Assembly: GCA_016866955.1 (NCBI GenBank)
Contig: VGKT01000005.1
Span: 1 to 32,000 of the forward strand
From: Candidatus Pacearchaeota archaeon
GTDB lineage: Archaea; Nanobdellota; Nanobdellia; Pacearchaeales; GW2011-AR1
Direction of reading: 5' to 3'
DNA: 32,000 bases
The translations under genes were made by a program, and so were the position numbers. Below are positions 2-32,000 of the stretch, one piece after another (the stretch's first letter is position 1; every line of letters begins with the position of its first letter). The notes under the pieces are model-generated. The model searched no databases and was not told where the DNA came from. It saw only the letters and a list, made by a program, of their open reading frames with translations.

Positions 2-508
2 CAAGATCTCTTGCGTGGGGATCCAGTGGTTATCAACATCATTCGCTATGGGGATGTTTTAATCGATGTAGGGGGTTTTTTCAATCCTTTGAAAGCCTTA
101 CTTCAACAAGGAAAAATAAAATCAACTATTGAATCAGTGTATACAGCATTAAGTCGCGCCCCCACACATCTCGTGAGAAGTAAAGCATCAAAAATGGCTG
201 CAATTGAAGGGACCTATTGGTGTATGGTTGATGCAGCACAAGCGGCACTTATCACTGTGGGTAAACTCCCTCCCAGTCCAGAACATATTCCAATGATGCT
301 CAAAGAAACCTTTGTTGATCAAAATATGCTTAACATGAAAGCAGTAACGGCAATGCGTGATCTCTATACCTTACATAAAAGTATTGCAAATGCAGAAATA
401 ACGGAAATTGCAGGTAAAGATATTGATCAATGGCAAGAAACGGCAGATAAATTTCTTAGTGATATGACGGATATTATTGATAAAATTCTCGAACAAAATA
501 AAAAGTGA
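2..508 (+). CDS. 3' part of a gene running off the left edge; helical (HEPN-like) domain that follows a nucleotidyltransferase domain; paralog of part of the 602-aa protein at 3497-5305
   Basis: The reading frame stays open upstream of the TTG at 11 to the window edge. AIEGTYWCMVDAAQAALITVGKLPPSPEHIP...LYTLHK aligns by eye with AMVDIYYGVVTPTQAMMMLAGEAPPVPKTMV...LFKQYE of 3497-5305. Confidence 0.6.
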   Translation, partial: QDLLRGDPVVINIIRYGDVLIDVGGFFNPLKALLQQGKIKSTIESVYTALSRAPTHLVRSKASKMAAIEGTYWCMVDAAQAALITVGKLPPSPEHIPMMLKETFVDQNMLNMKAVTAMRDLYTLHKSIANAEITEIAGKDIDQWQETADKFLSDMTDIIDKILEQNKK

Positions 509-585: not shown

Positions 586-1473
586 TTAAGCAACTGTTCG
601 ATACAAGAGTTCTCGAGCCTTCAAGTGATCATCAGTCGAACCCGCAATCATTGGAGCAAGACCTTGTGTGACATACCCTGCAATAGTGTGTACACCCTTA
701 TCCGCTTTCTGGAATGAGTCATATGCTTCTTTCGCTTGCTGAGCAAGTTTAGTAAGGACTTCTTTCTGAGCAGCAATAAAAGGGGCGTTATCTCGAACTC
801 CATTAAGAACCGCCTTTTTCTTCAATTCATAAAGGGTTTGTAAATGATCGCTATGGTATCGGTGACCATTCTTACTACGTTCAGTAAGATAGTTCTGAGC
901 AATAACCGTTGCAGCACCTTCATCAAGATCAATTTTTGTATTTTTCTTAAATGCTTCTTTTTCTTCTTTAGTCAATTCGCCTTTCCCAGCAAGCCCTTCA
1001 AAATAGGCTTTCTGCTCTTGAAGGCCCACATAATTTTGGAACCATACAGCATAGTCATCTGAAACATTTCGTTCAAGAAGAGGAGCTGTATCTTTTCCTG
1101 TTGCAAGTGCAACAAGCGTCTGTTCTTTTCCTTCTTTCACAATAGACTCTAAAGTTCCCTGCTCAAAAAGCATATTAGAAGCATCTTGAGAACGTTCACT
1201 TTGATACGTTTTAGCATAGGCAGATGCTTCAGAAAACGGCATTGCTTGAGGAGTAGGGAATTGTTGCATAAATGCATTCTTTTCAGCCGGAGTTGTTTGC
1301 TGACCAAGTTGATAGGTATAACCTGCTTGGAGAATAGCACCTTTAGCACCATCATGTACTACAGCACGAGGGTCTTTACTTGCAGTGTTAAAAAGATCAT
1401 CGAGGCTCTTGACATCTTTGAGAGCTTGCACGAATTCCTTTTTCTTGCTTGGTTCTGGAGGTGTATTTGTCAT
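586..1473 (-). CDS. hypothetical protein (295 aa), no recognisable motif
   Basis: Long ORF. ATG at 1473 lies 21 nt downstream of a TATA box (1495-1502, minus sense TTTAAATA). Overlapping plus-strand ORFs look like shadow frames. Confidence 0.65.
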   Translation of the reverse strand: MTNTPPEPSKKKEFVQALKDVKSLDDLFNTASKDPRAVVHDGAKGAILQAGYTYQLGQQTTPAEKNAFMQQFPTPQAMPFSEASAYAKTYQSERSQDASNMLFEQGTLESIVKEGKEQTLVALATGKDTAPLLERNVSDDYAVWFQNYVGLQEQKAYFEGLAGKGELTKEEKEAFKKNTKIDLDEGAATVIAQNYLTERSKNGHRYHSDHLQTLYELKKKAVLNGVRDNAPFIAAQKEVLTKLAQQAKEAYDSFQKADKGVHTIAGYVTQGLAPMIAGSTDDHLKARELLYRTVA

Positions 1474-1577: not shown

Positions 1578-2405
1578 ATGAAACCTTCACTCTCCCCTCA
1601 GCAATATAAGGCAATGCAAGAAGCAATTAGTACAGGAGAAAAAATACAAAGGACCTATCCCACGCTCCCCTTGGAATGGAAAGAGGGACGTACTTTTCTC
1701 GAACTCATTGAACAGTATCAATTAACTGGCGTGTATAAGAAAAGCGCGGCATTTCTCCAAAGAGCGTTGACGTATACTGTGCGAGGAAATCAAGACGCTG
1801 CGGGAGGCATCTGTTATCCTGGCGTGTACGCTCCAGAAGTATGTGATGAAATTGCACGACAGCACATGAGCGAACGAGGAACGAGGTGCTATATAACGAA
1901 AACCGGAATCTTCGGATTGGGAGAAACACAACAAAGAGCAATAAGAAAAAAAGGAGGCACACAGTCCTACAACCAAAGAAAAGGGATTCATAACTTAACA
2001 TCTGAAGAAAAAAGGGTCTTTGCAACGCAACGAGGATATGCTGCACTAAGAGATAAATCTGGTCTTTTTGGCCATTCAAAAAGAGAACGAGCAGCATGGA
2101 GAAAGAAAGGACTCGCAGCGATACAAAATCGTTCCCCTAGGGAAAGACAGATAGCAGCAAGGAAGGGAATAGAAACACGAGGTCAGAAAGTCTGGAGCGA
2201 TGCTGAAAAAGCCTACGTCACAGCACAAGCAGCAAAACCAAAGTATCAAATGGGTTCACGGGTAAATATAACCAGACTAGCTGAAGCAGTTAATAACAAA
2301 TTCTATGCAGGAAAACCAATAAGAACAGCGTTCGCTATTGGGCGAGCATTAGCGAAACAGCGAGAAAATTCACGATTAGAAAAACTTGCTGTGCACGAAG
2401 AATAA
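1578..2405 (+). CDS. hypothetical basic protein with tandem short G-hydrophobic...E-[KR]...KG repeats (NUMOD3-like look; possibly nucleic-acid binding)
   Basis: 275-aa ORF with a canonical TATA spacing. Internal repeats: GIFGLGETQQRAIRKKG / GIHNLTSEEKRVFATQRG / GLFGHSKRERAAWRKKG / SPRERQIAARKG. Confidence 0.6.
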   Translation: MKPSLSPQQYKAMQEAISTGEKIQRTYPTLPLEWKEGRTFLELIEQYQLTGVYKKSAAFLQRALTYTVRGNQDAAGGICYPGVYAPEVCDEIARQHMSERGTRCYITKTGIFGLGETQQRAIRKKGGTQSYNQRKGIHNLTSEEKRVFATQRGYAALRDKSGLFGHSKRERAAWRKKGLAAIQNRSPRERQIAARKGIETRGQKVWSDAEKAYVTAQAAKPKYQMGSRVNITRLAEAVNNKFYAGKPIRTAFAIGRALAKQRENSRLEKLAVHEE

Positions 2406-2436: not shown

Positions 2437-2973
2437 TTAACCTAACTTTTGAAATACAACTCTCGTCTTACCAGGCAATTTAGCACGTACTTGTCCCAAA
2501 GCATCACGAGCAACACGAGCAAGATCTTCGGTGGTAGTTGTAATCAAGAATAACACTTTTCCTGCAGCAACACGAGCAACACGTCCAATAATGATACCAT
2601 AGGATTGAGTCATACCTGTACTAATACGGTCTGCTCCTGCACCTGCTGCAGTCTTATTTTCACGTAAAAAGTGATGAGGGAAAATCTTTACTGCCATATA
2701 ATAATTGCCAGTTGCTTTTTCATCCATTGTTTTAGTTAATGCTTGACGAGCAGATTCAATAGCAGTGTCACGAATTTGAACTGCTTGTTCAGCAAACAAA
2801 GCAACTCCATAATGATGATTACCTAAGCGATGTTCTTTATAATTCCCTAAATGGAATTTAACGACTTTATGTGTCGGTACAGTCTTAATATAGGCCTTTC
2901 CTTTCTTACGAGAAATACGCGTATACGGGCGAGATTTCATCTTAGAATATGCTGAAGCCTTACGTATAGCCAT
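2437..2973 (-). CDS. rpl10e: 50S ribosomal protein L10e (uL16)
   Basis: MAIRKASAYS..RPYTR...FAEQAVQIRDTAIESAR...FLRENKTAAGAGADRISTGM matches archaeal L10e hallmarks. Its ATG (2973-2971) overlaps the TAA of the upstream L35Ae gene by 1 nt (TAATG). Confidence 0.93.
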   Translation of the reverse strand: MAIRKASAYSKMKSRPYTRISRKKGKAYIKTVPTHKVVKFHLGNYKEHRLGNHHYGVALFAEQAVQIRDTAIESARQALTKTMDEKATGNYYMAVKIFPHHFLRENKTAAGAGADRISTGMTQSYGIIIGRVARVAAGKVLFLITTTTEDLARVARDALGQVRAKLPGKTRVVFQKLG

Positions 2974-3227
2974 TATGCACCTTCAACAGGGGTAGCCATT
3001 GCTTGACCTGGTAATCCTGATTCAAAAATAGCACGTACTAACCCTTTATTTCCATGTGCATCACTTACTTTTCCTTGAATAACTTTTCCAGCACTCGATT
3101 TCCAAGCAACCTTTGCGCCAACAGCTTTTTTTGCTTCAGCACGATTTTGGAAACCTAAGTCTAAGAGATAATGTTTTTCCTTAATGCGATGTCTACTTCT
3201 ACGGAATTGAACCACAATGCCTTTCAT
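2973..3227 (-). CDS. rpl35ae: 50S ribosomal protein L35Ae (eL33)
   Basis: MKGIVVQFRRSRH...VAWKSSAGKVIQGKVSDAHGNKGLVRAIFESGLPGQA matches the archaeal L35Ae pattern (..LWKSPSGK...G.V...HG.KG.VRA.F..GLPGQA). Start placed at ATG 3227, 21 nt from TATA 3249-3256, rather than the TTG at 3242 used by the ORF track. Confidence 0.9.
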   Translation of the reverse strand: MKGIVVQFRRSRHRIKEKHYLLDLGFQNRAEAKKAVGAKVAWKSSAGKVIQGKVSDAHGNKGLVRAIFESGLPGQAMATPVEGA

Positions 3228-3248
3228 ATTCCGCATCAGCAAAACCCC

Positions 3249-3496: not shown

Positions 3497-5305
3497 TTAG
3501 AGTTCTAATTCGAAACTGCCCAATGCTTTTTGCAAGGTTGCAAACAAACTACCAGAAATCTTAGTGCTCAATTTTCCTTTATTATCGGCCAATGCTTTTT
3601 CAAATGCTTCTTTGGTACTTCCCACTATTTTTTCCCCTTTAATTTCTTGAATATTTTGTCCTTCAATAATAAAGTTTTGATTACCTAAAAGTACCAATTC
3701 GGCCTTACGTCCTTGATATGCAATCTGCATCATGCCTTTTTCAGCACTCACCAAGTCAGCGCGCTGAGCATATTCAGTAAGTGCGGCAATAAGTTCATAT
3801 GCATCTTTCTTAAGCGTGTCAGCTTCTTTAGCGCTCAATTTACCTGCCAGAATTTTACGCCGAGCTTTAACCAATTCAGGCAACACCTTTCCAAATCTAT
3901 TAGAAACTTTTCCTTTCTTAACCATCTGAACAGAAAATGCGCTCACGAGTTGTGCAGGAGATTTTTTCCCAAAGAATGTTTCAAGCAACTTGAACACTTG
4001 TTGATAGAGCTCTTCAGCACTTTTTTCCTGAGAACGTTGTTCCAATTGATTGCGGATTTTTTTCAAACGAACATTATACGCAAGACATTCTTTCAAAAAG
4101 AGATCAACTTCTGTTCCTGAAAATTCTTTCAATTTACCATATTCATATTGTTTAAACAAATGCACTGCTTTACCAACTAATTTCAAATCCTGAGCACTCA
4201 TGACCTTCTCACGTTCTACCAAAACATGCTTAACTTCCTCAACCATTGTTTTCGGAACAGGGGGAGCTTCTCCCGCTAACATCATCATTGCTTGGGTTGG
4301 CGTTACAACCCCATAATAAATATCAACCATCGCATCCAATAATCGTCGCTTAATGAATTCTTTCGTCTGATCTCCTTGTTTTACATACATATCAATTGCT
4401 TCAGGACTCGGTTTAATTCTACCCATCTTAAGCAACAATTTCCAAGGAATAAACGTTCCACGATCATATAACGGAATTCCATCCCGAATAAACGTAAAAG
4501 CAACAGGTTCGGCATCCTTCACACGTTGCCAGAAATCAGTCAATAACCAAACTTGCACATTTAACGGGTTCTTAACTCCTGCCAGAGCAGTTGCTTCCTT
4601 AATGTAATCATGAATAATTCCTCGTAAACGTTCCAATAATTCAACACGATTCATACGTTTCACGTCAGTATCATCAATTACCACGAAACAATCAATATCT
4701 GAATCCTTGCCCGCCGTTCCTCGCACTAAACTTCCTCCAATCACATAACTTGCAATGTACTTGTCAAATTTACGCATAACCATCGTTTTATGAATACTAG
4801 CTAAACGCAACGCGCCTAAGAAACCGTTATCGGAAATCGGAAATCCTTGTGCAACTGCATCAAGCAAATCAAACTTGCTGTCCAACCCATAATTGAATAT
4901 ATCTACAGGTGTTTTGATATGCACCCAGATATGCTCTTTCGTCTGTTTTGCAAGAGCAATAATCTCCGGTTTTATTTTGGGAATATGTTTGAAATCTTCT
5001 TCGGGTATTAACATCATAACATGAAGCGGTTTACTTTCCACCACTTCTTTCGGCAATAATTCATCTTCTTCAATAAGTAGAGATGCCTGAGGAGGTAACA
5101 AGACAAGTGCAAGAGTGGATTTATATTTTTTTAAAACTTCTTTCTTAAAGACTTCTAATTTTCCTTTTAATGCTTCCAAATTAAGGCTTGGTGCAGGTGC
5201 CCCTCCCGAAGCATTCGGTAGACCAGGGACATTCGGCGCAAGCGGAGAAGCGGGCACATAAGAAGGAGTTCCCGGTTTCATTTTTCCCGATAATGACCCA
5301 GCCAT
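3497..5305 (-). CDS. Pol-beta superfamily nucleotidyltransferase domain protein with long helical C-terminal extension (602 aa)
   Basis: NTase signature GGSLVRGTAGKDSDIDCFVVIDD (G-S/G...D-x-D). Pro/Gly-rich N-terminus. The downstream helical region is paralogous to ORF 2-508. ATG 5305 lies 21 nt from TATA 5327-5334. Confidence 0.8.
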   Translation of the reverse strand: MAGSLSGKMKPGTPSYVPASPLAPNVPGLPNASGGAPAPSLNLEALKGKLEVFKKEVLKKYKSTLALVLLPPQASLLIEEDELLPKEVVESKPLHVMMLIPEEDFKHIPKIKPEIIALAKQTKEHIWVHIKTPVDIFNYGLDSKFDLLDAVAQGFPISDNGFLGALRLASIHKTMVMRKFDKYIASYVIGGSLVRGTAGKDSDIDCFVVIDDTDVKRMNRVELLERLRGIIHDYIKEATALAGVKNPLNVQVWLLTDFWQRVKDAEPVAFTFIRDGIPLYDRGTFIPWKLLLKMGRIKPSPEAIDMYVKQGDQTKEFIKRRLLDAMVDIYYGVVTPTQAMMMLAGEAPPVPKTMVEEVKHVLVEREKVMSAQDLKLVGKAVHLFKQYEYGKLKEFSGTEVDLFLKECLAYNVRLKKIRNQLEQRSQEKSAEELYQQVFKLLETFFGKKSPAQLVSAFSVQMVKKGKVSNRFGKVLPELVKARRKILAGKLSAKEADTLKKDAYELIAALTEYAQRADLVSAEKGMMQIAYQGRKAELVLLGNQNFIIEGQNIQEIKGEKIVGSTKEAFEKALADNKGKLSTKISGSLFATLQKALGSFELEL

Positions 5306-5326
5306 ACTTTAGGATACGTAAAATGC

Positions 5327-5334
5327 TATATAAA
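5327..5334 (-). promoter_or_regulatory. TATA box for 3497-5305
   Basis: Minus-sense TTTATATA, 21-nt spacer. Confidence 0.55.
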
Positions 5335-5507
5335 GGTATTTATGAGAAGAGAACAAAAGAAAGTTTTAGAAGGAAAACGCAAGCTCTCATGAGGTGAGAA
5401 ACAGAGAAAATGCCCCTCTAGTAAAGGCAGATTTTCGTGTATTTGGAGCAATTGGCTTTCAAGATCTCTGGCTTATCTATCTCGAATAGAAACATAAAAT
5501 CAGTGAT

Positions 5508-5515
5508 TTTATATA
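5508..5515 (+). promoter_or_regulatory. TATA box for 5537-6046
   Basis: TTTATATA, 21-nt spacer to ATG 5537. Confidence 0.55.
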
Positions 5516-5536
5516 ATCTCTTTTCCTCGGAAATAC

Positions 5537-6046
5537 ATGGAAAAGGAGGATCAGAAAATAAAGCATGATTTTGCCCGGTTTGCATTCAGCACGCTCTCCG
5601 ACCAAATCAAACAAGCAGATACCAAAGCATTTGGAGTGTTAAGCATCGTAGGCGTATTAACTGCAGGATTACTTGCACGCCTCAATGCGATTAAATCTGC
5701 TGTTGGCTTAAACTCAACATGGATTATCCTCTTCATTATTTCTGCTGTACTTATCATCTTCACCCTCAAAGCAGTGATTCGTGTCATCTTTCCGCGGCTC
5801 GCAAATAATCCGCTGCACGAACGAAGCATCCTGTACTTTAGAGATATCGTCGCGCAACCAAAACAACACTATGTCAACCTCGCCAGTAGGTATACAAACG
5901 AAAAGCTACTCGAAGGGCTGTATATAGACGTGTACAATCTTTCCATCATCGCAGATGCAAAATTTGCTTCGTTACGTAAAGCACTCATCCTCACGGTTCT
6001 TACCTTCGCCTGGACAATCACTATTATTCTCCTTTCCTATAGGTAA
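5537..6046 (+). CDS. small 3-TM membrane protein resembling the DUF5706 / Pycsar-effector (PycTM-type) or SLATT-like membrane effector domain
   Basis: N-terminal motif LSDQIKQADTKAFGVLSIVGVLTAGLL (the ADTKA-then-TM pattern I associate with DUF5706). Second TM WIILFIISAVLIIFTLKAVI, soluble stretch, C-terminal TM ALILTVLTFAWTITIILLSY. At 169 aa it is domain-sized. Confidence 0.45.
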   Translation: MEKEDQKIKHDFARFAFSTLSDQIKQADTKAFGVLSIVGVLTAGLLARLNAIKSAVGLNSTWIILFIISAVLIIFTLKAVIRVIFPRLANNPLHERSILYFRDIVAQPKQHYVNLASRYTNEKLLEGLYIDVYNLSIIADAKFASLRKALILTVLTFAWTITIILLSYR

Positions 6047-6059
6047 CAGCAAGGTATTC

Positions 6060-6067
6060 TTTATATA
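6060..6067 (+). promoter_or_regulatory. TATA box for the VIT-family gene
   Basis: TTTATATA, 21-nt spacer to ATG 6089. Confidence 0.55.
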
Positions 6068-6088
6068 ATCCCCCTCGTTACAAGTAGC

Positions 6089-6616
6089 ATGTCCTTCAAG
6101 CATTATCTTCTCGAATATGTATATGGGGGGATTGATGGGGCAATTACCACGTTCGCAGTCATAGCAGGTGCACAAGGAGCCCAGTTATCCACAGCTATTA
6201 TCATTATATTAGGATGTGCAAATCTGATTGCAGATGGATTTTCAATGGCTACAGCAAGTTATCTTGCCACCAAATCTCAAACAGAATTACATAGACATCA
6301 TCGAGATTGGAAGGAATATCAAAAACAAGGAAAACACCCCCTAAAAACAGGACTTGCAACATTTTGTGCATTTGTGGGGGTGGGCAGTATTCCTTTACTT
6401 TCATTTCTTCTCACTTTTGTTATCCCTTATTCTAAAACAACCCAATTTACTTCTGCATTTATCTTAACAGGTGTTGCACTTTTCTGCATAGGATTTGTAA
6501 AGGGAATAATTGTCAAAAAGCACCCTTTACGCGCTGCAGGAGAAACGCTTCTTATCGGAGGTATTGCAGCTGGACTCGCATATGGAATCGGGGCATATAT
6601 GCAAACGATCGTCTGA
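6089..6616 (+). CDS. VIT1/CCC1-family iron/manganese transporter
   Basis: YGGIDGAITTFAVIAGAQGA N-terminal signature, ANLIADGFSMA, and multiple TM helices typical of the VIT family. Confidence 0.8.
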   Translation: MSFKHYLLEYVYGGIDGAITTFAVIAGAQGAQLSTAIIIILGCANLIADGFSMATASYLATKSQTELHRHHRDWKEYQKQGKHPLKTGLATFCAFVGVGSIPLLSFLLTFVIPYSKTTQFTSAFILTGVALFCIGFVKGIIVKKHPLRAAGETLLIGGIAAGLAYGIGAYMQTIV

Positions 6617-29604: not shown

Positions 29605-30669
29605 CTAAATAAGACTCAAGATGAAAGCAACTAGGCTAAAAAGCAATACAAATAAAATAGCTCTTTTCTTTGATATATGAAGGATTTTCTTTGAAAGGAA
29701 TTTAGTTGCACTGAATAACAAATCAGTATTGAAAAACCAAAATAAACCGATAATACTAAAAGAAACATAAGTAAATACTGCAGGAATAGCAGTCTTACCT
29801 ATAACAAGCCCACCGATAACTGCATCCATGACGCCGCCAAGGTTTGTCCCAATGAGATAAGGTATAGCTTTCTTAAGATTAATAAGCCTTACTACAATTA
29901 ACGGTATAAGCAGGGCAAGAGTTACACTTGTGGATGTCAAAATTAAGGCAATAATCAATCCAGTTAGAAAGGAAAAGTAATTATCCCCCATATATTTATT
30001 AATACTCTTTCTCAGATATGTCTCGCCACAAAATTTAACTATAAAATAAGGCATTTTCTTCAAACTAAAAATCAAAAAAACAATACCTAAAAAGGGAAAT
30101 AGATATGGTGGCACAATAATATCTAACAATTTTATTAAAGGAAGTGTAATGCTATCAATAGAAATAAATTCAAAGGGAATTTGAATGCTGATAAAATAAT
30201 TTCCTATATTTGAGAAAAAAGAAAAGAGATATTCCATGAAAAACATAAGAACTGCTATCGGTAATGCATAGACAATATTTGCCAATCCGATTTCGAATCC
30301 GTGCCTAAAATCACGTTCTTTTGCAGAAATAAATAGTGCTACTAGAAAGAAAGTTATTGTTGTTCCGATTCTTGTTCCTATAACCATAAAAACCAAAAGT
30401 GTTTGCTCTATAATTCCTGCAGAATTTATGGCTGCTAAAGCAGATGTTGTAGCCCCGCTTGATTGCAGTATCAGTGTTAAAAGCCAGCCAATGCCAAAAG
30501 CGTTAACTTCGCTTACGTTGTCGTCAAGCAATCTTAGAAAAGCTATTTCGGCACCACTGAAAAAATATTTTATTAACTCAAGAGAAAGAAAAAATAAAAA
30601 GAAGGAAAGCAATAAACCTAAAAGATAAATAACTTTTTTTTGTTTACTTTCTGCTAAGATAAAATTCAT
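29605..30669 (-). CDS. Na+/phosphate cotransporter family (NptA/PF02690-like) membrane protein
   Basis: GIGWLLTLILQSSGATTSALAAINSAGII (QSS-containing repeat) and a second repeat IGTNLGGVMDAVIGGL. It is polytopic and its coding sequence is AT-rich. AGGAG lies 9 nt upstream of the ATG. Confidence 0.7.
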   Translation of the reverse strand: MNFILAESKQKKVIYLLGLLLSFFLFFLSLELIKYFFSGAEIAFLRLLDDNVSEVNAFGIGWLLTLILQSSGATTSALAAINSAGIIEQTLLVFMVIGTRIGTTITFFLVALFISAKERDFRHGFEIGLANIVYALPIAVLMFFMEYLFSFFSNIGNYFISIQIPFEFISIDSITLPLIKLLDIIVPPYLFPFLGIVFLIFSLKKMPYFIVKFCGETYLRKSINKYMGDNYFSFLTGLIIALILTSTSVTLALLIPLIVVRLINLKKAIPYLIGTNLGGVMDAVIGGLVIGKTAIPAVFTYVSFSIIGLFWFFNTDLLFSATKFLSKKILHISKKRAILFVLLFSLVAFILSLI

Positions 30670-31063
30670 ACTTGAATCTCCTTTTTTCTATGTAAATTTC
30701 AAAGGAAAATACGTTTTATATATGTAACGAAATAAAAATTATTTTAGCCTAGAAGTATCTTATAAATTATTATCAAAAAAAAGGGGTTTAAAGTAAACTG
30801 CTAGGATAGTATGGTGCCAGTATCTCTGGCAAATCTAATGCGATTCAAAAGTTTTTTCTTTTTAATGGAGAATATAATTCTACTGTTTCTGCGGATTATT
30901 TTTCTTTTCATTTTTAATTTTGATCGACAAAATTATGAATTAATATTCTCTAAATTAATATCTGAATTTAAGATAAATAATCATACAAAAATATTAAAAA
31001 AAATCTTAGAAGAAACATAAGTAAAAACAAAATAATTAAATAAGCAATCTTCGTTTAAAATTC

Positions 31064-31495
31064 ATGGAAGAATTAAAAAAAGAGCCTTGGTTAAAAGAAT
31101 CTGCTCGAGACCTCTTAGCTCTTGGAAGCCTTGCAATAGGCCTAGCACTTGTAGCTCGTTCTACGTTGGGAGGTTATTGGAATTTTGTTTATTGGGTTCT
31201 ATTCTCATTCATCGTTCTTTTTGGTTTAAGCTTTATAATAAAAGATTACGAAAGACATCTTGCAAGAGGAATAACTCTTTTATTTTTTACAATTTTATTT
31301 TATAAGGCAGATAGTGATATAACATTTTTGGCAATCTTTTTATCTATTTTATTTATCGTAATGATTGCATCGGCATTTTATCTCAAAAAAGATACAAGAA
31401 CTATTGTAAGGGGAATATTTATGGGCGTCTTTGCTACTGCACTGAGCTATTATATCTCTCTCCCTCTTGCAAGGTTACTCGGACTACCATTTTAA
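31064..31495 (+). CDS. hypothetical 4-TM membrane protein (143 aa)
   Basis: ORF with four hydrophobic helices, AT-rich. No motif recognised. Confidence 0.5.
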   Translation: MEELKKEPWLKESARDLLALGSLAIGLALVARSTLGGYWNFVYWVLFSFIVLFGLSFIIKDYERHLARGITLLFFTILFYKADSDITFLAIFLSILFIVMIASAFYLKKDTRTIVRGIFMGVFATALSYYISLPLARLLGLPF

Positions 31496-31652
31496 GTATA
31501 TATTTAATTTGAAAAATGAAAATAAAAGTCACCTCTTAAAATAAGATTTTATCAAAACGGTTACAGCCCTTGATAAGATTGCTTTTCTATAAACTTCAAT
31601 ATTTTAGTGAAAGTGAAGGTAAAATAACAACTGCTTGACTGGGAGAAATTGA

Positions 31653-31940
31653 AGATTCGAAAGCAACTATAAGTTTCGTGCAAGGGAGATTATGGAAGGG
31701 CAATGGGCTGCTTCAACGGGCAGTGACGCCCAGCCCTATTTTAGAATATTCAATCCGTGGAGTCAGCAAAAAAAATTTGATCCCGAATGTAAGTATATCA
31801 AGAGATGGATTCCTGAATTAGAAAAATACAACTCAAAAGAAATACATCAATGGCAGGGCGATAATTCATATCCCTCCCCAATAGTAGACCATAATATTGA
31901 AAGAAAAAAAGCTTTAGAAATGTTCAAAGAGATATCTTAG
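31653..31940 (+). pseudogene. C-terminal remnant of a DNA photolyase/cryptochrome (FAD-binding domain tail)
   Basis: GQWAASTGSDAQPYFRIFNPWSQQKKFDPECKYIKRWIPEL....YPSPIVDH matches the photolyase C-terminal consensus (GGWQW.A..G.D..PYFRIFNP..Q..KFD..G.YI..W.PEL...YP.PIVDH). An in-frame stop at 31650 and an unrelated gene upstream leave no room for the roughly 350 missing N-terminal residues. Confidence 0.75.
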
Positions 31941-32000
31941 AATGATATTTATTTTTCCTTTTGAATTTTTCTATTTACTTACTTTATAATCAGGGGATTT

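Follow-up and report, generated by a model that had tools for sequence, protein, structure and literature searches.

The first 32,000 nucleotides of contig VGKT01000005.1, from a Candidatus Pacearchaeota archaeon and here called the window, include a divergently transcribed pair of genes. One encodes a 602-aa protein with a Pol-beta-superfamily nucleotidyltransferase (NTase) core and the other a 169-aa membrane protein of the PycTM (DUF5706) family. An earlier reading made from the sequence alone (the sequence-only reading) had proposed that the two might form an NTase plus transmembrane (TM) effector system, with the logic of the cyclic-oligonucleotide-based antiphage signalling system (CBASS) or the pyrimidine cyclase-based system of resistance to phages (Pycsar), and had allowed that their adjacency could equally be coincidental. 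We consider it likely that the NTase and PycTM are functionally independent and share an old neighbourhood, the PycTM gene being an orphan in an accessory position next to a core gene. The genes and sub-features on which this argument draws are as follows.

3497..5305, minus strand: gene for the 602-aa NTase (ORF, with the Pfam NTP_transf_2 profile above threshold)
4622..4768, minus strand: catalytic core of the NTase, aa 180-228 (as delimited by the Pfam match)
3971..4408, minus strand: NTase helical domain, aa ~300-445, probably HEPN/UPF0332-like (AlphaFold2 helices, weak Foldseek matches and Joint Genome Institute (JGI) names)
5537..6046, plus strand: gene for the 169-aa PycTM/DUF5706-family protein with three TM segments (Pfam PF18967, PADLOC and hydropathy)
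5306..5536, no strand: divergent spacer of 231 nt between the NTase and PycTM genes, with two TATA-like boxes
6089-6616, plus strand (6059..6616 with its TATA-like box): VIT1 iron/manganese transporter-family gene (Pfam, E=2.2e-35)
2973-3242, minus strand: ribosomal protein gene L35Ae, downstream of the NTase gene and on the same strand (Pfam)
2437-2973, minus strand: ribosomal protein gene L10e/uL16, also downstream of the NTase gene on the same strand (Pfam)
11..508, plus strand: C-terminal part of a shorter NTase paralogue, cut by the window edge (phmmer)

The two open reading frames (ORFs), the spacer between them and the VIT-family neighbour are all as the sequence-only reading had given them. 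A pattern search located one TATA-like box, CTTTATATA (5327-5335, minus strand), ~26 nt 5' of the NTase ATG and a second, TTTATATAA (5508-5516, plus strand), ~25 nt 5' of the PycTM ATG, and the VIT1 gene has a box of its own at 6059-6067. The presence of such a box approximately 25 nt before each of the three start codons suggests that the boxes are putative promoters and that the three genes may be expressed as separate, leaderless transcripts.

Distribution and gene context of the nucleotidyltransferase

More than 3143 homologues of the NTase were found. The top 120 are all ~600 aa, share 61-84% identity and come from metagenome-assembled genomes (MAGs) of Pacearchaeota or Nanoarchaeota. Among species-representative genomes of Pacearchaeota/Woesearchaeota, at least 580 have the gene, and an exhaustive profile search divided the family into 702 clusters at 50% identity. 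Synonymous sites have changed far faster than non-synonymous ones (dN/dS 0.07-0.10), which indicates strong purifying selection. All of the close relatives were from Pacearchaeota, Woesearchaeota or Nanoarchaeota MAGs, which confirms the DPANN context given in the initial reading.

Gene order was compared using the 80 best NTase loci, of which 61 extend at least 3 kb downstream of the NTase gene, 44 at least 9 kb downstream and 64 at least 2 kb upstream. L35Ae was found 3' of the NTase gene and in the same orientation in 53/61 loci, with L10e in the same block. On the other side, the usual divergent neighbour is VIT1, which was divergently upstream in 24/64 loci. A PycTM relative was near the NTase gene in just two of the same 64 loci, L009, which is a close relative of the window, and L058 (L and P numbers are our own designations). 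Widening the PycTM profile did not add to these two, the next best match having E=0.12. Conserved co-occurrence, which had been put forward as a check on the proposed system, was therefore not seen in these species-representative loci, and most of the pairs that do occur have intervening genes.

The breadth of its distribution, its strong conservation and its synteny with ribosomal protein genes mark the NTase as a core housekeeping-type gene and not a defence gene. In DPANN archaea of the Pacearchaeota/Woesearchaeota type the NTase belongs to the core genes; it is catalytically intact by sequence, is fused to a helical domain that is probably HEPN-like, and is inherited in one conserved block with L35Ae and L10e. 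Most likely it nucleotidylates a housekeeping substrate, and as its neighbours encode ribosomal proteins, that substrate may be RNA or otherwise related to translation.

A shorter paralogue (~262-303 aa), consisting of an NTase and a helical module, is present a few kb past the ribosomal protein genes in 24/44 loci. In the window this position is occupied by the ORF at 11-508, for which phmmer gave matches to the 602-aa NTase and to the ~275-aa NTP_transf_2 genes found at the corresponding place in relatives. Elsewhere, the paralogue was found at 1046-1957 in L001 and at 2175-2963 in L004. Among the 702 clusters, some relatives of the NTase core (P0215, P0224, P0226 and P0243) are 1083-1340 aa and have long N-terminal arrays of tetratricopeptide repeats (TPRs) fused to the NTase-helical module. 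The contig of one locus, L072 (DAOTCN010000001.1), is labelled 'Candidatus Paceibacterota bacterium' and encodes the archaeal NTase with L35Ae and L10e after it; the label is probably a taxonomic error for a Pacearchaeota genome.

Domains and relationships of the nucleotidyltransferase

The Pol-beta core that had been recognised by eye in the 602-aa protein is supported by Pfam. NTP_transf_2 matched aa 180-230 with 35.3 bits (cut-off 21; E=1.6e-8), the Polbeta profile fell just under its threshold across the same residues, and no other profile matched. The catalytic motif region, GGSLVRGTAGKDSDIDCFVVIDD, is at aa 190-212. An alignment of 30 homologues shows no variation at G191, S192, D203 or D205 and almost none at D257, the putative third carboxylate of the NTase core, which lies further downstream. 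With an above-threshold profile match and a conserved G-S plus DxD motif, the protein falls within the MNT/KNTase-type family PF01909.

From its N-terminus, the NTase comprises a disordered Pro/Ala-rich stretch, an alpha/beta domain and the minimal Pol-beta core. A helical domain, probably HEPN-like and including a long helical stretch, comes next, and a small beta domain is C-terminal. An AlphaFold2 model of the full-length protein, with a mean predicted local distance difference test (pLDDT) score of 72, contained an N-terminal alpha/beta region, an NTase fold, long helices and a C-terminal beta region, while a model of the NTase-helical core alone was poorer (pLDDT 58). When the full-length model was used to query the PDB with Foldseek, there was no match below E=1e-3, and the NTase-type matches returned were to ANT(9), AadA and ANT(4''). 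ANT(9), AadA and ANT(3'')(9) ranked first when the core-only model was used, though weakly (E ~0.01), and the cGAS/DncV-like nucleotidyltransferase (CD-NTase) CdnE was placed below them (E=0.14, probability ~0.3). The HEPN protein AF_0298 matched the same pLDDT 58 model with a probability of 1.0, an E-value of 0.22 and a target-normalised TM-score of 0.63. Pfam returned no HEPN match in the NTase; JGI names its relatives 'predicted nucleotidyltransferase/UPF0332 family'. A profile search of PDB sequences gave nothing significant, and a literature search on NTase and HEPN in Pacearchaeota was without result.

The top Foldseek matches for the full-length model were to the eukaryotic ribosomal protein eS7 (E ~7e-3, probability up to 0.97), which we judged unreliable given a TM-score of ~0.27 and a root-mean-square deviation of ~17 Å. 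This similarity is intriguing beside the synteny of the NTase with ribosomal protein genes, but is too weak to trust.

Models for CBASS cyclases scored only 13-15 bits against the NTase, where their cut-offs are ~200, and aligned with the catalytic loop only. NCBIfam CBASS_cyclase_b, for example, reached 14.9 bits where its cut-off is 200, and the PADLOC Cyclase model matched ~60 residues with E=0.012. The weak NCBIfam matches also included MntA and ANT(9). The NTase thus groups with NTase-HEPN proteins of the MNT/KNTase/ANT type, and not with CD-NTases or Pycsar cyclases, an outcome that the sequence-only reading had named as counting against its proposal. Based on the models, we tentatively describe its architecture as MNT/KNTase-like, that is, an NTase with a HEPN-like domain, to which other domains have been added. 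Like ANT(9), AadA, KNTase and the MNT-HEPN pair MntA-HepT, it has a GS...DxD core followed by a helical domain, in its case a probably HEPN-like one, and its best Foldseek matches are in this group, although all of its structural matches are weak (E ~0.01). It differs from them in its length of 602 aa and in the extra N-terminal alpha/beta and C-terminal beta domains, and from MntA-HepT in being a single fused polypeptide and not a toxin-antitoxin pair. The NTase also differs from the ANT/MNT modules in its status as a core gene of high conservation, in its linkage to ribosomal protein genes and in the TPR arrays at the N-terminus of some relatives.

The 169-aa membrane protein

The sequence-only reading had assigned the 169-aa protein to DUF5706 from an ADTKA motif ahead of its first TM segment, and had seen in it a likeness to SLATT effectors. 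Searches with profile hidden Markov models upheld the first assignment and gave no support to the second. The protein scored 47.6 bits against PF18967 (PycTM; E=2.4e-12), above the Pfam gathering score of 27.2, and PycTM was the sole Pfam family reported at E<=1. No Pfam SLATT family was returned at E<=1, in searches where HMMER filters may hide very weak matches. The motif is present as QADTKA at aa 26-31, directly before the first of three hydrophobic segments in the hydropathy profile (~aa 31-49, 61-81 and 148-167), and a helical loop of roughly 65 aa joins the second segment to the third. Residues 8-165 aligned with the PADLOC PycTM model PDLC02364 (E=9e-23), and the PADLOC PycTM models were covered at positions 4-151 of 160. 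Several PADLOC models for the CBASS 'Effector 2TM' also matched over the full length of the protein (E down to 2e-17).

The PycTM family has been described as stand-alone, pJV1-SpdB3-type three-transmembrane proteins that are partnered with class III-type cyclases (bioRxiv 10.64898/2026.08.12.744502). The earlier reading had drawn attention to the lack of a cyclic nucleotide monophosphate (cNMP)-binding domain in the 169-aa protein. The domain is indeed absent, but as members of the family are described as stand-alone 3TM proteins, its absence is normal for PycTM and not an anomaly.

Across 12 sequences, 20 columns are invariant even though identity falls to 26%, and a dN/dS value of ~0.13 for the L001-L007 pair is evidence of purifying selection. 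Judged from its sequence, the 169-aa protein belongs to the PycTM (DUF5706, pJV1-SpdB3-like 3TM) family, is complete and has been maintained by selection. Homology predicts that it would oligomerise in the membrane and, when triggered, would permeabilise or perturb it.

Neighbourhoods of PycTM relatives

A single-sequence search recovered seven clusters of the PycTM subfamily and a profile search recovered 36. Lengths range over ~120-210 aa, with most at 160-180 aa, and the relatives in L058, L090, L092, L093 and L095 also exceed the PF18967 threshold. The arrangements found around the PycTM gene were the following.

Window: NTase (minus strand), then PycTM (plus) and VIT1 (plus)
L004, L009, L093 and L104: NTase (minus), then VIT1 (plus) and PycTM (plus)
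L001, L007 and L089: NTase (minus), then YdjM (plus), PycTM (plus) and a 48-aa ORF
L102: NTase (minus), then a 157-aa ORF, PycTM, a 288-aa ORF and YdjM
L058: NTase and PycTM separated by three genes
L101 and the P0142 locus, archaeal: PycTM between EF1A and EF2, beside a DUF1761 gene
L100, L095 and L103, archaeal: PycTM at the MetRS locus
L099, bacterial: PycTM between rpoC and dnaG-rpoD
L090, bacterial: PycTM beside RuvX, PilM and Fic
L092: PycTM beside VKOR and MacB
L098: PycTM beside glyoxalase and SWIB

No cyclase or CD-NTase gene was found beside PycTM in the ~16 contexts examined, and the NTase was absent from the neighbourhood of PycTM at the EF1A/EF2, MetRS, rpoC-dnaG, RuvX/PilM and VKOR loci. 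The initial reading had noted the lack of a neighbouring cyclase, and a Pfam scan of the ORFs in the window agreed with this, finding neither a cyclase (there was no Guanylate_cyc match) nor a CD-NTase. The adjacent class III-type cyclase, PycC or PucC, that defines a Pycsar system was likewise missing both from the window ORFs and from the genes flanking the relatives. As no such gene is beside PycTM here or in the relatives examined, its trigger would either be encoded elsewhere or not be a nucleotide. The 169-aa protein shares with the PycTM of Pycsar an above-threshold PF18967 match, a length of ~165 aa, three TM segments, a full-length PADLOC match and the lack of a separate cNMP-binding domain. 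It differs from it in having no adjacent PycC-type cyclase in any of the ~16 contexts and in belonging to a subfamily that is rare, confined to DPANN archaea and bacteria in contexts like those of the candidate phyla radiation (CPR), and located mostly in housekeeping neighbourhoods.

A tblastn search of PLSDB plasmids and a search of IMG/VR viral contigs found no PycTM relatives, and PHROGs yielded one weak family of unknown function at most. A literature search for DUF5706 found nothing. The archaeal contigs L100, L101 and L103 and the bacterial contigs L090 and L099, the latter with CPR-like contexts, have in common a narrow PycTM subfamily with 30-45% identity, which suggests inter-domain transfer among ultra-small organisms. 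Past the PycTM gene, a phage integrase and AbiEii are encoded at 8756-11427 in L007, and an AAA_14/DUF4143 ATPase and an IS200-type Y1 transposase at 8844-10945 in L001. These mobile or defence-type genes indicate that the far side of the PycTM slot is a variable region.

The gene contexts raise the question of whether PycTM has a membrane role outside defence, as a partner of the neighbouring membrane or metal-handling proteins (VIT1, YdjM and similar), such as a part in the ion or envelope homeostasis of these ultra-small cells. The PycTM gene is always co-oriented with and adjoining another gene for a small membrane protein. This is VIT1 in the window, L004/L009, L093 and L104, YdjM in L001, L007 and L089, where start and stop codons are 1-2 nt apart, DUF1761 at the L101 and P0142 loci, and VKOR at L092. 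Most of the loci are housekeeping and not defence-island contexts, and the purifying selection on PycTM would also fit such a role. However, no one partner is constant across the loci, VIT1 may precede or follow PycTM depending on the genome, a separate TATA-like box lies before VIT1, PycTM does not accompany VIT1 at most loci (of 64, 24 have VIT1 and 2 have PycTM), and the sole characterised role of the PycTM family is as a defence effector. We consider a non-defence partnership of this kind unlikely.

The lack of a cyclase in the window and in the neighbourhoods of relatives, together with the patchy distribution of PycTM among related genomes, could also mean that the gene is in decay, as what is left of an earlier Pycsar system after loss of its cyclase. 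The ORF is, however, intact and full length relative to the PADLOC models, and the invariant columns and low dN/dS value described above are not those of a decaying gene. Because PycTM is under purifying selection, we reject this explanation, which we regard as extremely improbable.

Shared history of the NTase-PycTM locus

For the loci in which the two genes are co-located, pairwise identities of the NTases and of the PycTM proteins are correlated (r=0.83, Mantel p ~0.001). The correlation indicates a common descent of the two genes at an old syntenic locus, with later loss of PycTM from most lineages and its relocation in some. The sequences thus indicate that the neighbourhood is inherited synteny and not chance. 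The suggestion of coincidental adjacency in the sequence-only reading was closer to this result than was its system proposal, but is inexact, as the two genes have a common history at the locus. Co-divergence with the NTase over long evolutionary distances also implies that PycTM has been maintained for a long time, which again counts against a decaying remnant. The PycTM gene fills an accessory slot in a divergent cluster of membrane-protein genes (VIT1, YdjM) upstream of the NTase gene, in a position that is probably ancestral in part of the clade and lost in most lineages.

Several observations weigh against functional independence. PycTM was found within ~2.5 kb of the NTase gene, and always divergent from it, in five archaeal lineages in which PycTM identity is as low as 35-41%. 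The matches to PADLOC CBASS 2TM effector models mean that there is a precedent for pairing with an NTase-type signal producer. In a crude neighbour-joining tree, the NTase-adjacent PycTM proteins were not monophyletic. The scan of the source genome for cyclases covered the 32-kb window, and the exclusion of a CD-NTase-like enzyme on the basis of fold is soft, because the models have pLDDT scores of 72 and 58 and no Foldseek match has E<1e-3. The neighbour-joining tree would suggest repeated independent insertion of PycTM at the NTase locus; as NTase and PycTM divergence correlate, we rejected this as the principal explanation.

The first two of these observations, the divergent adjacency of the genes in the window and the intact catalytic residues of the NTase would all fit a CBASS/Pycsar-type two-gene signalling system formed by the NTase and PycTM, in which a nucleotide signal made on infection or stress opens the 3TM effector. 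Such a system would resemble a CBASS composed of a 2TM effector and a CD-NTase to the extent that the 2TM models match PycTM and the neighbouring gene encodes a Pol-beta-superfamily NTase. However, the window NTase has no CD-NTase or class III cyclase signature, with CBASS models at 13-15 bits versus ~200 and CdnE below the ANT enzymes by fold in models of modest confidence. The two genes are divergent and do not form an operon, they appear to have separate promoters, and in most relatives that have both, VIT1, YdjM, the 157-aa ORF or three genes intervene. Co-occurrence is inconsistent, as an NTase found in at least 580 species has PycTM nearby in 2/64 loci, and relatives of PycTM also occur where this NTase is not close by, both at other archaeal loci and in bacteria. 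Moreover, the NTase is syntenic with ribosomal protein genes and extremely conserved, unlike fast-evolving defence genes. We therefore find two-gene signalling very unlikely. Little credence can be given, too, to a version in which, in Pacearchaeota/Woesearchaeota, a cyclase-less PycTM effector whose retention at the NTase locus is not incidental is gated by the nucleotide product or nucleotidylation activity of the NTase-HEPN protein, or by a host-cell signal, making a Pycsar/CBASS-like abortive or membrane-gating module on a housekeeping enzyme of ultra-small archaea. The same low likelihood attaches to PycTM being triggered by the NTase or by an unlinked enzyme.

Other features of the window

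The other ORFs of at least 90 aa in the window had Pfam matches to RtcB, TGT, an ABC transporter, hydrolases and similar proteins. Two ORFs, at 586-1473 (minus strand, 295 aa) and 1578-2405 (plus strand, 275 aa), lie between the NTase paralogue and the ribosomal protein genes and had no significant Pfam, NCBIfam or PHROG match. A homologue of the 295-aa ORF was found only in L009, the closest relative of the window. The G+C content of positions 30001-32000 is 0.28-0.32, compared with ~0.40 in the rest of the window, and this stretch may be a foreign or intergenic-rich segment.

Significance of the gene pair

Had the NTase and PycTM formed a system, no PycTM defence module driven by an NTase would have preceded it in DPANN archaea. 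What the evidence favours is the commonplace arrangement of an accessory gene beside a core gene, and the pair in the window are ordinary members of known families in an uninformative neighbourhood. As there is a cyclase-less, orphan PycTM subfamily in DPANN archaea and CPR-like bacteria, a match to PF18967 alone should not be taken to mean that a Pycsar system is present. Few uncharacterised genes of the clade are as conserved as that for the 600-aa NTase-HEPN-like protein, and its conservation and its linkage to ribosomal protein genes make it a reasonable target for functional work.

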